A stretch of 64,000 bases of DNA from Eledone cirrhosa (taxonomy: Eukaryota), in contig OZ024761.1 in the NCBI GenBank assembly GCA_964016885.1, positions 12,152,001-12,216,000 of the forward strand. The letters are read 5' to 3'. Every line of letters begins with the position of its first letter. The stretch's first letter is position 1. The notes beneath the pieces were generated by a model. That model searched no databases. It saw only the letters and a list, made by a program, of their open reading frames with translations, and was not told the origin of the DNA. The translations under genes were made by a program, and so were the position numbers. Positions 2,235 through 57,358 of the stretch are shown piece after piece.

Positions 2235-2479
2235 TATAAAACATATTTATTCTATTATATATATTTCAAGGGTACCAAAACTTTGGTACGCCCTCATCAG
2301 ATAAAATACAGAGCTTGTTTTATAAATATTGACATATCAACGGTTCAAGTTTTACCAGGTAAAACTTGAACCGTTGATATGTCAATATTTCTAAAACAAG
2401 CTCTGTATTTTATCTGATGAGAGCGTACCAAAGTTTTGGTACCCTTGAAATATATATAATAGAATAAATATGTTTTATA
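2235..2479. repeat. 245-bp palindrome (centre 2357) with a hammerhead in each arm; Penelope-like pseudo-LTR remnant
   Basis: The arms are reverse complements with about two mismatches. Confidence 0.92.
2406..2466 (+). ncRNA. Minimal type-I hammerhead ribozyme (mirror copy on - strand at 2248-2308)
   Basis: TATTTTAT CTGATGA [GAGCGTACCAAAGTTTTGGTACCCTT] GAAA TATATA TA^ ATAGAATA; predicted cleavage after 2458. Confidence 0.85.
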
Positions 2480-3077
2480 TATCTGGTTGGTTCTCAGGTT
2501 TATCATCGTGCGTTGTGAAACCTGGCTCAGACTGTCTCCTTTTCACATCTAAACAGAATTGGAAAGGGGGGGGGGTCCAGTTAAGAGTCTCACCTTGATC
2601 ATGAACATGAGGAAGCCATTACAGTTTGTCTGGGAAAGTTTCCCACCTGGCCTGTGATTTTGTCATGGAAGTCGTTCAGCCACCATATATGTATGATTTA
2701 TATATACACATACATATACATATATTTATATGTATATATATATGTATGTGTATGTATGTATATATATGTATATATATATATATATATATATATATACATA
2801 CACACACATATACATACACACACACATATGTTTATGTGTATATATAAATATATATATATTTATATATACATATATATATATATTTATATATACATATATA
2901 TATATATATATATATATATATATATATATATATATATATATATATATATATATACATACACACACACATATGTTTATGTGTATATATAAATATATATATA
3001 TATATTTATATATCATGTTTAATATAGAAATGGCTTCTAAAGGACTAAAACTGTTTCATTCAAAAGAAATCATCTTC

Positions 3078-4115
3078 ATATAATATCTCACATAACATTT
3101 ACATTACTCTATATATACTATTGTATTGTCACAGTAAAGGCTTTACCTCACATAATATCTCACATAACATTTACATTACTCTATATATACTATTGTATTT
3201 TCACAGTAAAGGCTTTACCTCACATAATATCTCACATAACATTTACATTACTCTATATATACTATTGTATTGTCACAGTAAAGGCTTTACCTCACATAAT
3301 ATCTCACATAACATTTACATTACTCTATATATACTATTGTATTTTCACAGTAAAGGCTTTACTTCACATAATATCTCACATAACATTTACATTACTCTAT
3401 ATATACTATTGTATTTTCACAGTAAAGACTTTACCTCACATAATATCTCACATAACATTTACATTACTCTATATATACTATTGTATTGTCACAGTAAAGG
3501 CTTTACCTCACATAATATCTCACATAACATTTACATTACTCTATATATACTATTGTATTTTCACAGTAAAGGCTTTACCTCACATAATATCTCACATAAC
3601 ATTTACATTACTCTATATATACTATTGTATTGTCACAGTAAAGGCTTTACCTCACATAATATCTCACATAACATTTACATTACTCTATATATACTATTGT
3701 ATTTTCACAGTAAAGGCTTTACCTCACATAATATCTCACATAACATTTACATTACTCTATATATACTATTGTATTTTCACAGTAAAAGCTTTACCTCACA
3801 TAATATCTCACATAACATTTACATTACTCTATATATACTATTGTATTTTTATGGTAAAGGCTTTACCTCACATAATATCTCACATAACATTTACATTACT
3901 CTATATATACTATTGTATTGTCACAGTAAAGGCTTTACCTCACATAATACCTCACATAACATCTACATTACTCTCTATATACTATTGTATTTTCATGGTA
4001 AAGGCTTTACCTCACATACCTTAATGTCAGTATGAGTGGCCTGTTACAGTTATTTAGAACAGAAAGAGATAAGAGAATTCTGGCTGGATACGTCCGGTTT
4101 AAATGCTAAAGGCTT
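3078..4115 (+). repeat. 72-bp minisatellite (~13 copies) expanded inside a TTAA-type MITE
   Basis: Unit cataatatctcacataacatttacattactctatatatactattgtattttcacagtaaaggctttacctca; the element ends taaatgctaaaggcTTAA at ~4117. Confidence 0.9.
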
Positions 4116-4489
4116 AATCTTAATATATATATATATATATATTTGCTTAAACTTTAATCTGTTATTTTAATAAATAAATATATATATATATATATATATA
4201 ACGGCGATAAATTAGTTTTGCGAGGTTTTTTACATGAAATCGTGTCGAAACAAATATTGTTATACTTGGGGAGGGTCATATTTGGGTAATAATATTGCCA
4301 GAATTAATAACAGAACACACTCACTGTTTGGTTGGTTTTCGCTTCTGTGTCTTTTATATCGGTTAATTTAATTTATTCGGTCCTCAATGTTGCCATTGAC
4401 TGACCAATATATATATATATACAGTTGGATTCTTGTCTAAGTGTTTATCCATAAATTGAAAGGATGAAGAGCCTGGGCAGTTTCAATTC

Positions 4490-4750
4490 TAAATGAAAGA
4501 CCCTGTCTATGCCATTAACCCTTTCATTACTATATTTCTAATGAAAGACACTGTCTATATCATTAACCCTTTCATTACCATATTTCTAATGAAAGACACT
4601 GTCTATGTCCTTAACCCTTTCATTACCATATTTCTAATGACACTGTCTATGTCATTAACCCTTTCATTACCATATTTCTAATGAAAGACACTGTCTATGT
4701 CGTTAACCCTTTCATTACCATATTTCTAATGAAAGACACTGTCTATGTCT
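4490..4750 (+). repeat. 48-bp minisatellite (~5 copies), same unit as 23174-23920
   Basis: Unit ttaaccctttcattaccatatttctaatgaaagacactgtctatgtca. Confidence 0.9.
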
Positions 4751-54730: not shown

Positions 54731-55260
54731 AACAAATGGAAGTTCAGCATAATCGAAGCTCTGGCTGCAGCTAAGCTAACGAATGCAATCGGGATGTGCA
54801 GCTAAGCACTCAATAAGGTATTTTACCTTAGAGTTATAACATTACGTTTAGACAGCGACCGGTGAGCCAGCCGCAGGGACCAAAGCAACGAGAAAAAACT
54901 GACTCAGGAAAATATGGCAAACCTGGACCATCGCATCGCGTTGATATATATAAAATTAATTAAAGGTTAATTAGTCACTAATACCCAAACATATCAATGA
55001 GAGAAACCTCTCAGAGAAGCAATATTACATATTAAAATTAAATGAGAAAAACTCTAATTCTCATTTAAGGGTCGTGTGGGACAGAATCCTGACCCGCCCG
55101 CCCCCCTCCCCAGCGGCTCCTGTCAAGCGTCTCCAACTGATCTGGCTGGAAAACCAAGCCTGACCAGCCAAGCTCATGGATGTTATTCAACCATCTTGCT
55201 CGGGCGGGGTGTACCCCTGGGTCTCCTGTCAGTTGGTCTTGCCCGTAAAATCTGTCCAGA

Positions 55261-56490
55261 GATTCTTTCCTGAGACATTCTAACCACATGCCCATAGAAT
55301 CGCAGCTGTGATCTCTCAATTCAGTGATTCTCTCCTGAGACATTCTAACCACATGCCCATAGTATCGGAGCTGTGATCTCTCAATTCAGTGATTCTCTCC
55401 TGAGACATTCTAACCACATGTCCATAGTATCGGAGCTGTGATCTCTCAATTCAGTGATTCTTTCCTGAGACATTCTAACCACATGCCCATAGTATCGGAG
55501 CTGTGATCTCTCAATTCAGTGATTCTCTCCTGAGACATTCTAACCACATGCCCATAGTATCGGAGCTGTGATCTCTCAATTCAGTGATTCTTTCCTGAGA
55601 CATTCTAACCACATGCCCATAGAATCGCAGCTGTGATCTCTCAATTCAGTGATTCTTTCCTGAGACATTCTAACCACATGCCCATAGAATCGGAGCTGTG
55701 ATCTCTCAATTCAGTGATTCTTTCCTGAGACATTCTAACCACATGCCCATAGAATCGGAGCTGTGATCTCTCAATTCAGTGATTCTTTCCTGAGACATTC
55801 TAACCACATGCCCATAGAATCGCAGCTGTGATCTCTCAATTCAGTGATTCTTTCCTGAGACATTCTAACCACATGCCCATAGAATCGGAGCTGTGATCTC
55901 TCAATTCAGTGATTCTTTCCTGAGACATTCTAACCACATGCCCATAGTATCGGAGCTGTGATCTCTCAATTCAGTGATTCTCTCCTGAGACATTCTAACC
56001 ACATGCCCATAGTATCGGAGCTGTGATCTCTCAATTCAGTGATTCTTTCCTGAGACATTCTAACCACATGCCCATAGAATCGCAGCTGTGATCTCTCAAT
56101 TCAGTGATTCTTTCCTGAGACATTCTAACCACATGCCCATAGAATCGGAGCTGTGATCTCTCAATTCAGTGATTCTTTCCTGAGACATTCTAACCACATG
56201 CCCATAGAATCGGAGCTGTGATCTCTCAATTCAGTGATTCTTTCCTGAGACATTCTAACCACATGCCCATAGAATCGCAGCTGTGATCTCTCAATTCAGT
56301 GATTCTCTCCTGAGACATTCTAACCACATGCCCATAGTATCGGAGCTGTGATCTCTCAATTCAGTGATTCTTTCCTGAGACATTCTAACCACATGCCCAT
56401 AGTATCGGAGCTGTGATCTCTCAATTCAGTGATTCTCTCCTGAGACATTTTAACCACAAGTCCATAGTATCGGAGCTGTGACCTCTCAAT
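55261..56490 (-). repeat. 65-bp minisatellite (~19 copies) amplified from RTE coding sequence, inside an RTE fragment at 55130-56585
   Basis: The unit's reverse complement encodes ERSQLRYYGHVVRMSQERI and matches the single copy at 30960-31030. Confidence 0.92.
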
Positions 56491-57157
56491 TCAATTCGAA
56501 GTAGCAGCAGCTCTCTCTGGAGTGACTCTCTGATTTCGAAGCTAGACATCTGTCCAGCGATTCTTTCCTGAGACATTTTAACCACTTTGCTAGAGAACGG
56601 GTCGCAGGTGGTGGATAGAGATACAGTCACCAGATATGATAAGCAATCTCGGACCAACAGTGGTAAACTACTAGAGGAGTGGGAACAATGGGTGACACCA
56701 GAAAACTCTCACAACCCAGTGATGTAGCTATGACGAGGCGAGTAAAGGCCACCTCTAAAAAAGCCTAGTCTTCGCGGGTTTCACAAAGTACCAGATTGGT
56801 GACAGGCGCGAATAAGACCTCAGAAACTACTACTGCAATATGATGAGAGGAACAATAAAGAACCATACCACATCGCCCTTCACGCAGGTTAACAAGGGAC
56901 GTGTCCAGGTAGTGGGACCAGTTTGAAAAAATATATTGCAGTCTCCATTTCATGCTGCAAAAACTGTCAATGGGCCTGTGACTGCTCTGGGGGAAGGGCA
57001 TGGGATGGACGCACAAAGATTGCGTATCCTGAGACCCCCAAAGAGGAAAGGACCAAACGTTGACAATTGGATATATACATGCGTGTGTATATATATATAT
57101 ATATATATATATATATATATATATATATATATATATATATATATATATATATATAAA

Positions 57158-57358
57158 TAATGTATAAAAATCAATACAATATAATTACCTCATTACCAGA
57201 GGTTTCCCGAATGAGGCGAATACGAAAGAAACGTCTTCATTCGTTCGTCAGACGAGGCCCTCGTCTGACGAACGAATGAAGACGTTTCTTTCGTATTCGC
57301 CTCATTCGGGAAACCTCTGGTAATGAGGTAATTATATTGTATTGATTTTTATACATTA
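57158..57358. repeat. 201-bp perfect palindrome (centre 57258) with a hammerhead in each arm (+ copy at 57259-57328)
   Basis: CCTCGT CTGACGA ACGAATGA..TCATTCGG GAAA CCTCTGG TA^ ATGAGG. Confidence 0.93.

Follow-up and report, generated by a model that had tools for sequence, protein, structure and literature searches.

The stretch of DNA analysed here, called the window throughout, spans 64,000 nucleotides (G000:C22:12,152,001-12,216,000) of a 3.0-Gb genome and carries nine long palindromes that we interpret as paired ends of Penelope-like elements (PLEs), joined head to head and in part equipped with hammerhead ribozymes. The gene in the window is Suppressor of Hairless (Su(H), CSL/RBPJ), whose ten coding exons occupy 7051-27481 (+). 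Octopus proteins are the top matches to these exons among the five homologues compared; the first two exons are 97% and 100% identical to Octopus, 88% and 96% to cuttlefish and 85% and 86% to mussel. Because the exons are closest to Octopus, the host is likely an octopus, which agrees with the coleoid cephalopod considered as a possible host in a preliminary description of this DNA. Naming each palindrome by its first position, 18409 sits inside a Su(H) intron, 2235 and 6357 lie 5' of the first Su(H) exon located, and the remaining six lie past the last coding exon. Since N-terminal residues of Su(H) are absent from the window, 2235 and 6357 are probably within an earlier intron of the same gene. 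Every palindrome in the preliminary description is present where it was placed, and we read them as the following head-to-head PLE stubs:

2150..2479: stub with palindrome 2235-2479 and tail on the left, from arm comparison and hammerhead descriptor; the cores lie at 2300 (-) and 2414 (+), and cleavage is predicted after 2256 (-) and 2458 (+); by eye, its hammerhead and tail are like those of the 49931 family
6295..6561, left end approximate: stub with palindrome 6357-6561 and tail on the left; cores at 6450 (-) and 6468 (+); like the 57158 family by eye
18330..18524: stub with a left-hand tail, within a Su(H) intron; of the hammerhead, its arms retain only GAAA, stem III, GUC and the 3' stem I strand
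39618..39801: stub with a left-hand tail, in the family of 44741; both arms have a degenerate core (CCGAUGG)
42995..43417: stub with palindrome 42995-43330 and tail 43331-43417; cores at 43095 (-) and 43230 (+)
44741..44937: stub with a right-hand tail; of the two arms, only the + arm has an intact core
47260..47456: stub with tail on the left; 5' half of the core missing in both arms; related to 18409
49931..50397: stub with palindrome 49931-50305 and tail to 50397; cores on both arms
57158..57437: stub with palindrome 57158-57358 and tail to 57437; CUGACGA cores on both arms

The arms of these inverted repeats are 48-193 bp long and differ by 0-6 mismatches. After masking of microsatellites, the window holds 8 perfect arms of at least 25 bp, the longest of 183 bp, and none of 20 shuffles gave any; the nine palindromes are real and far above chance. 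Spacers of 0-3 nt had been described for most of the palindromes; six of the seven main cases have them, and the spacer of 44741 is 9 nt. All share one architecture, a tailed arm and an inverted tail-less arm, with both ends meeting microsatellite. One arm was previously thought to run on into the rest of the element; instead, it continues into a tail of 65-90 nt and stops at a microsatellite, directly in seven of the nine and as a short TA run only at 2235 and 6357. The whole palindromes are predicted to fold with 83-99% of their bases paired, into the long duplexes that had been anticipated. By eye, the tails of all window stubs, for example those at 43331-43417, 44872-44937, 50306-50397 and 57359-57437, begin with small hairpins of similar form. 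Each hairpin is closed by CTC...GAG, has a few conserved bases after it, is placed just beyond the end of the short arm and is a candidate protein-binding or priming signal.

Type I hammerheads were recognized by CUGANGA, GAAA and NUH in this order with three stems, and the strict descriptor gave 9 matches in the window against 1 in 30 shuffles. All arms read outward in the hammerhead sense, as a type I hammerhead or part of one, and NUH lies downstream of the centre in every arm, which places the centre 5' of the cleavage site as originally noted. The accompanying claim of one ribozyme per arm applies to five of the nine palindromes (2235, 6357, 42995, 49931 and 57158), where both arms have CUGANGA and GAAA; it fails for 44741, which has a core on one arm, and for 39695, 18409 and 47344, which fall outside the type I definition. 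Single hammerhead monomers have weak or alternative predicted folds. An Rfam scan of the window gave no hammerhead family among the matches listed (150 of 200), which comprise microsatellite-driven microRNA-type matches, one tRNA and weak matches. PLE hammerheads alone cleave poorly (PMC4209133), and their cleavage can need the protein (PMC11167929).

Long copies of the 18409 family (L153, L170 and L175) carry, by eye, a variant core 5' of the turn point, mostly UUGA(G/U)AA with a long stem II, in which U3 would pair with A8. A U3-A8 pair is a natural hammerhead variant. The turn point of this family falls within loop II and, because the core lies upstream of it, the 18409-family stubs are without a core and cannot be ribozymes. 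A separate inverted repeat at 17848-17937, with 44-bp arms, has a variant core on one arm, and further hammerhead motifs without a palindrome occur at 19672 (+), 49813 (+), 50594 (-) and 1248 (-; a weak candidate). The outward-facing ribozymes seem to be a by-product of insertion geometry rather than a designed pair.

The proposed Penelope-like origin is borne out by ORF (open reading frame) motifs, insertion layout and long parent copies. Sister copies matched by a query made of the 57158 tail only extend kilobases upstream. A query containing the palindrome is biased and was kept out of all fractions. The 57158-family parent L074 (G000:C3:124.16 Mb) is ~3.7 kb long and encodes a 716-aa reverse transcriptase (RT) and GIY-YIG-like ORF. 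Its hammerhead-to-hammerhead distance is 3,687 bp, and a long 3' untranslated part accounts for this length. The RT motifs RWK (KRMRWKALI) and DKT in place of DKG (FSDKTKNL), seen for the 57158 family only, are accompanied by the endonuclease motifs CxCX5C (CSCRIKSEC), CxxC (CTLC) and CxH (CPH). Long relatives of the 49931 family have a Hydra-type endonuclease C-terminus with CNCRDRSKC, CDLC and CKH, and reading by eye only, we saw no CCHH motif in either endonuclease. Elements of the Hydra clade have RWK, DKT and CxCX5C and, next to the conserved E and N of their C-terminal GIY-YIG domain, CxxC and CxH (PMC8557442). Terminal repeats that contain a hammerhead, and (TA)n as insertion target, are also features of that clade. 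From these motifs, the 57158 and 49931 families appear to be Hydra-clade PLEs, while the others would be placed among PLEs by layout, tail and hammerhead only. An inverted repeat at 19529-19592, with 24-bp arms and without a hammerhead core, resembles a motif that adjoins the PLE ends of L062 and L074.

PLEs typically combine a one-sided tail with a 5'-truncated, inverted copy at their 5' end (PMC8557442), and the head-to-head structure with an optional tail is already known for them (PMC8557442, PMC3846280). The one-tail layout is found at 39 of 40 junction loci of the 42995 family, with two tails at none, and at 29 of 30 in two more families. The arms are head to head, which rejects a non-LTR (long terminal repeat) retrozyme made of head-to-tail monomers that each have a hammerhead; direct upstream copies are present at 1/40 loci of the 57158 family, 1/30 of the 42995 family and 5/30 of the 18409 family. 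A MITE (miniature inverted-repeat transposable element) or fold-back DNA transposon is likewise rejected by the one-sided tail, the variable arm length and the RT-encoding parents. One locus, L040 (G000:C6:25.147 Mb), contains a tail-only mini-array of tandem 107-bp units, in which the tail is joined to the beginning of the downstream sequence; the array has an inverted unit at its 5' end and lacks a hammerhead.

These ends are abundant. Exact matches to the tail motif number 5,493 (42995 family), 18,235 (18409) and 2,476 (49931) genome-wide, and family-specific junction patterns recovered 1,922 (42995), 383 (49931), 7,704 (18409, one site) and 24 (57158) loci, ~10,000 junctions for the four patterns together. 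Random ribozyme orientation across the genome had been named as the result that would speak against the palindromes being products of PLE reverse transcription, and the orientation is clearly outward. One site of the 42995 family accounts for 1,922 head-to-head junctions, compared with 3 tail-to-tail ones. Samples drawn with the tail only, of 30 loci per family for most, have an inverted copy upstream within 1.5 kb in 11/40, 21/30, 16/30, 15/30 and 22/30 loci (85/160) and downstream in 1, 5, 0, 2 and 4 (12/160). Two of these samples include the window's own locus, two loci outside the window were counted from both sides, and two duplicates were dropped from the first sample.

The inner ends of the arms were initially thought to turn at a different point in each insertion. 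Instead, they mostly pile up at one site per family, an initiator-like A in a pyrimidine-A site. In the 42995 family (40 of the first 50 junction loci listed), the arms end at the A that follows TTTTC in long copies, and 0/40 run 3 nt or more upstream; the junction pattern left room for longer arms. Arms of the 49931 family stop at the A of TCACT. At 14 of the 40 42995-family junctions, 7 of them unambiguous, a G immediately precedes the start A, where long copies have C. This extra G is on the tail-less arm in 8, on the tailed arm in 7 and on both arms in one (L276). By eye, it also occurs at 4/24 junctions of the 57158 family, one with G on both arms, and at ~5/50 of the 18409 family. The commonest 42995-family junction, which the window locus also has, is a 4-nt self-complementary overlap (16/40). 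In this family the two arms of a locus diverge by 1.75%, compared with 6.2% between loci. Among 44 adjacent inversions, 15 have a tail-less arm that extends further 5' than the tailed one and 4 show the reverse, with equal reach in 25; the same layout is seen with arms from <100 bp to >1 kb.

Because of the fixed inner end and the extra G, we infer that the pile-up base is the 5' end of the element RNA. The G would be either a copied cap or a non-templated addition at run-off, both of which give the same RNA end. In full-length LINE-1 insertions, an extra G marks cap copying (PMC11702581). The pile-up base differs from the hammerhead cleavage site, which lies downstream, and this agrees with the use of uncleaved RNA as template in vitro (PMC11167929). 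In five loci (L133, L140, L144, L190 and L059), tailed arms end within ~25 nt of the start site of the short arm and overlap the inverted arm little or not at all, as in the twin-priming inversions of LINE-1.

A second class of evidence comes from edited loci with dense A>G substitutions, among them G000:C1:52.535 Mb and C1:284.011 Mb. The 49931-family locus L236 (5541-9465; G000:C1:52.535-52.539 Mb) has a main arm of 2,781 nt and an inverted arm of 1,144 nt, which has 0 mismatches and one 16-nt indel. All 160 substitutions in the 2,508 callable sites of the main arm are A>G, and the inverted arm carries 72 of the same edits; long sister alignments have 0-2 A>G each. An edited master copy is unlikely, because no other locus among the 40 scored carries the L236 edits. 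Editing rates by 5' neighbour are.26 for U,.19 for A,.11 for C and.08 for G, and by 3' neighbour.34 for G and.14 for U. None of the 32 A in the tail is edited; editing stops 42 nt before it, leaving 45 later A's unedited. This boundary would fit a source locus with a long tail-less inverted arm, and such loci exist (L213/L231). Shared A>G in both arms was also found in L321 (10/10) and L310 (6/6), and weakly in L315. Because the arms carry the same sense A>G edits, both appear to have been copied from one edited sense RNA.

Searches with patterns that force two A>G edits gave 14 matches and the mirror patterns with two T>C gave 4, together in 14 distinct loci. The 14 loci comprise four of a hairpin class, three with shared edits, one with a single edited arm and six that are not hyper-edited. 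In the hairpin class, one arm has A>G and the other T>C (22/33, 27/37, 12/20 and 12/19), so that one strand is edited across the whole palindrome, with only 1 edit in the four tails, as expected for folded read-through RNA. The preference for the 5' neighbour is that expected of the RNA-editing enzyme ADAR; pooled over six edited loci the bias at -1 has p = 6e-15, and that at +1 is weak. A 3' G preference has been described for ADAR (PMC5625713). The edits are thus dense, on one strand and confined to the duplex, with G disfavoured on the 5' side and favoured on the 3' side. The suggestion that transcripts crossing the palindromes would be ADAR substrates is supported by these loci, in which read-through transcripts appear to have been edited and left as genomic fossils in the 42995 family.

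One hairpin-class locus can be traced to its source. Genome-wide, the L311 junction has a single further occurrence, in an unedited parent locus on another chromosome, at C3:318.63 Mb, with which L311 has in common a private variant and ~1.2 kb of flank. Over 1,879 columns, the two differ by 128 T>C and 6 other substitutions. The edits of L311 extend ~60 nt into the flank, where by eye an inverted partner lies beyond the parent's long TA tract, and the daughter copy has a microsatellite at both its start and its end. Strand-biased C in flanking TA tracts was found in 6/38 unedited controls, with the same bias on both sides, and was counted as an edit only where the parent shows the original letters. 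The other hairpin-class loci may reflect repair in place from edited RNA. Edited proviruses are known from birds. Ordinary copies show no general A>G excess (76 A>G and 125 T>C among rare variants), and the nine window palindromes, of which five families were scored, show no edit clusters.

The explanation we favour, and consider quite probable, is that the stubs are PLE ends inserted in (TA)n, for which one capped sense RNA was copied twice and the two complementary DNAs (cDNAs) were joined at their inner ends. Each stub is the terminal part of a longer element, with Hydra-type ORFs in two families. The outer ends fall at two fixed positions, one that includes the tail and one just before it; by analogy with another PLE in vitro, these would be two reverse-transcription start sites, one for each cut strand of the (TA)n target. 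The inner ends at pyrimidine-A, often with the extra G, would correspond to the transcription start, with the G as a copied cap or a run-off addition, and the sense A-to-G changes common to both arms suggest that a single RNA molecule templated both. To our knowledge, the PLE enzyme has no RNase H, so the RNA may stay intact for a second copying. The cDNA ends would then be joined by end-joining with short overlaps. A later read-through transcript may fold on itself and be edited, presumably by ADAR given the pattern, and occasionally be copied back into the germline. Taken as a whole, it seems reasonably likely that copying from two fixed internal starts to the first base of the RNA, followed by head-to-head joining, has produced at least ten thousand perfect hairpins, and that germline ADAR edits of these have been made heritable.

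Several observations weigh against this interpretation. About half of the sampled insertions have no inverted arm within 1.5 kb. The ORFs examined come from two families, 57158 and 49931, and a Pfam scan gave no family match for the L074 ORF. The junction patterns allowed gaps of 20-24 nt only and so over-represent the hot-spot, which is also visible in the tail-only samples, at 30 loci per family. Of the 14 junctions with an extra G, 7 can also be read as having one templated base from the other arm, and in the 18409 family several arms run 2-4 nt beyond the main site. The proposed start site and cap are read from genomic junctions. A longer tail-less arm could be mimicked by later deletion that shortens the tailed arm, and in L236 the tailed arm is the longer one, which fold-back allows too. 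Hyper-edited copies are rare, with 1 in 360 aligned segments of an unselected sample, and 6 of the 14 loci found with the forced-edit patterns are not hyper-edited.

Fold-back or template switching, the route favoured in the preliminary description, would have a single tailed cDNA fold, with copying back as far as the boundary of the tail. Identical arms and shared edits are expected from this route too, and it suits the 25/44 adjacent inversions with near-equal arms and the self-complementarity of the commonest 42995 junction (16/40). However, without the help of later deletion this route is unable to yield a tail-less arm that extends further 5' than the tailed arm (15/44), a G on the tail-less arm (8/40, some ambiguous) or a G on both arms (L276 and one 57158-family junction). 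Young insertions without mutations, in which the extra part of a longer tail-less arm is edited as the remainder is, would speak against it; L310 and L315 are imperfect pointers in this direction. We therefore regard fold-back as unlikely to be the main route. It is still less probable that the palindromes spread mainly as whole units from earlier palindromes, in the manner of retrozymes or MITEs. Whole-unit copying does occur, as L311 copies a palindrome-bearing region from another locus, and many junctions are identical, but the arms within a locus are far closer to each other than loci are, the junctions vary around a fixed site, arms of very different length have the same layout, and the only traced case carried flanking DNA along.

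Self-priming on antisense RNA, as proposed for rotifer PLEs (PMC3846280), explains the head-to-head geometry and the intron retention in other PLEs, and its authors left a sense template open. Here, the shared edits are sense A>G (160/160 in L236, and those of L310 and L321), which argues against antisense self-priming, the extra G is at the sense 5' end, and none of the 4 mirror-pattern matches has T>C common to both arms; this route is highly improbable for the present elements. That the palindromes are fold-back artefacts of sequencing or assembly is barely credible: none of the reads or contigs spanned a window junction by 31 letters on each side, contigs and restriction-site-associated DNA sequencing (RAD-seq) reads being swamped by repeats, and some arms are 100% identical, yet the outer ends fall at two fixed element bases in thousands of loci, ordinary mutations distinguish the arms, one junction is common to a parent and daughter on different chromosomes, and contigs of run X1, which may be the assembly's own sample, cross mirror-symmetric sister junctions (39730-39766; 57203-57313).

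The closest known relatives of these elements are in the Hydra clade, which includes Hydra-1_Obim of Octopus bimaculoides, with (TA)n targets (Craig et al. 2021, supplement; PMC8557442). They have the same motifs, the hammerhead near the 3' end and the same targets, but L074 is longer, at ~3.7 kb, than the <3 kb usual for the clade, the tails are 65-90 nt here and 30-40 nt there, and the hammerheads differ from that listed for Hydra-1_Obim. The fixed inner end and the extra G are features of the present elements that are not seen for the Hydra clade in the parts consulted of that paper, which describes the origin of inverted PLE structures and the transposition cycle as still undefined. The rotifer elements of Arkhipova et al. 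2013 (PMC3846280) also have head-to-head inverted pseudo-LTRs (pLTRs), junction palindromes and an optional tail, and the initiator-like TCACT of their pLTR is the motif at the 49931-family pile-up site. They are present in few copies, compared with thousands in this genome, and where antisense self-priming was proposed for them, the edits and extra G here point to a capped sense template copied twice.

In vitro work with the Anolis PLE Poseidon (Frangieh et al. 2024, PMC11167929) found that two internal RT starts bracket the tail, that both target strands are cut and extended and that the template is uncleaved RNA; a dimer is predicted. Poseidon belongs to a different clade, and the text consulted describes reconstitution of neither the joining step nor inverted insertions. 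In LINE-1 twin priming, a 5' inversion arises when the other target strand also primes synthesis, but LINE-1 inversions are mostly non-overlapping and microhomology-primed at variable sites (PMC11702581), whereas here priming is at fixed sites and the two copies usually represent one and the same stretch of RNA, which yields a palindrome. Self-folding repeats, such as frog Harbinger, are strong ADAR targets, lizard Penelope RNA is heavily edited, and octopus has a very high hyper-editing signal and much potential double-stranded RNA (Porath et al. 2017, PMC5625713). That study measured RNA, with octopus outside its repeat analysis; here the edits are fixed in genomic DNA. In the literature searched, which left out most subscription papers, we found no account of PLEs in which the inner end is fixed, an extra G is present or ADAR has left marks in the genome.

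How PLEs form inverted ends is an open question, and three genomic marks described here separate the models: the inner end is fixed and has an extra G, the arm without a tail often outreaches the tailed one, and the two arms have edits in common. From these marks, exact outcomes can be predicted for an assay in vitro. In addition, the palindromes represent a large and so far unassigned source of perfect double-stranded RNA in an animal known for extreme A-to-I (adenosine-to-inosine) editing, and the pair of unedited parent and edited daughter suggests that editing of such hairpins takes place in the germline and that they can return to DNA. If this is true, the element makes editing substrates for its host, and RNA edits become heritable mutations.

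Other repeats share the window with the stubs. A common non-coding repeat of 580 bp at 57567-58615 (+) ends in a tail-like hairpin at (TA)n and is broken by ~430 bp of a C2H2 zinc-finger frame (57883-58554). This repeat stands beside three edited loci, and we rejected it as a driver of editing, as it occurs in many unrelated loci. Fragments of long interspersed nuclear elements (LINEs) lie at 39966-41597 (+), with an RT and a PHD finger, and at 59728-62628 (-), with an endonuclease and an RT. A tandem array at 3080-4020, with a unit of ~57 bp, adjoins a fragment of the 44741 family, and a tRNA-like match at 1617-1688 (+), with 42.4 bits and over the Rfam gathering score, is possibly the head of a short interspersed nuclear element.

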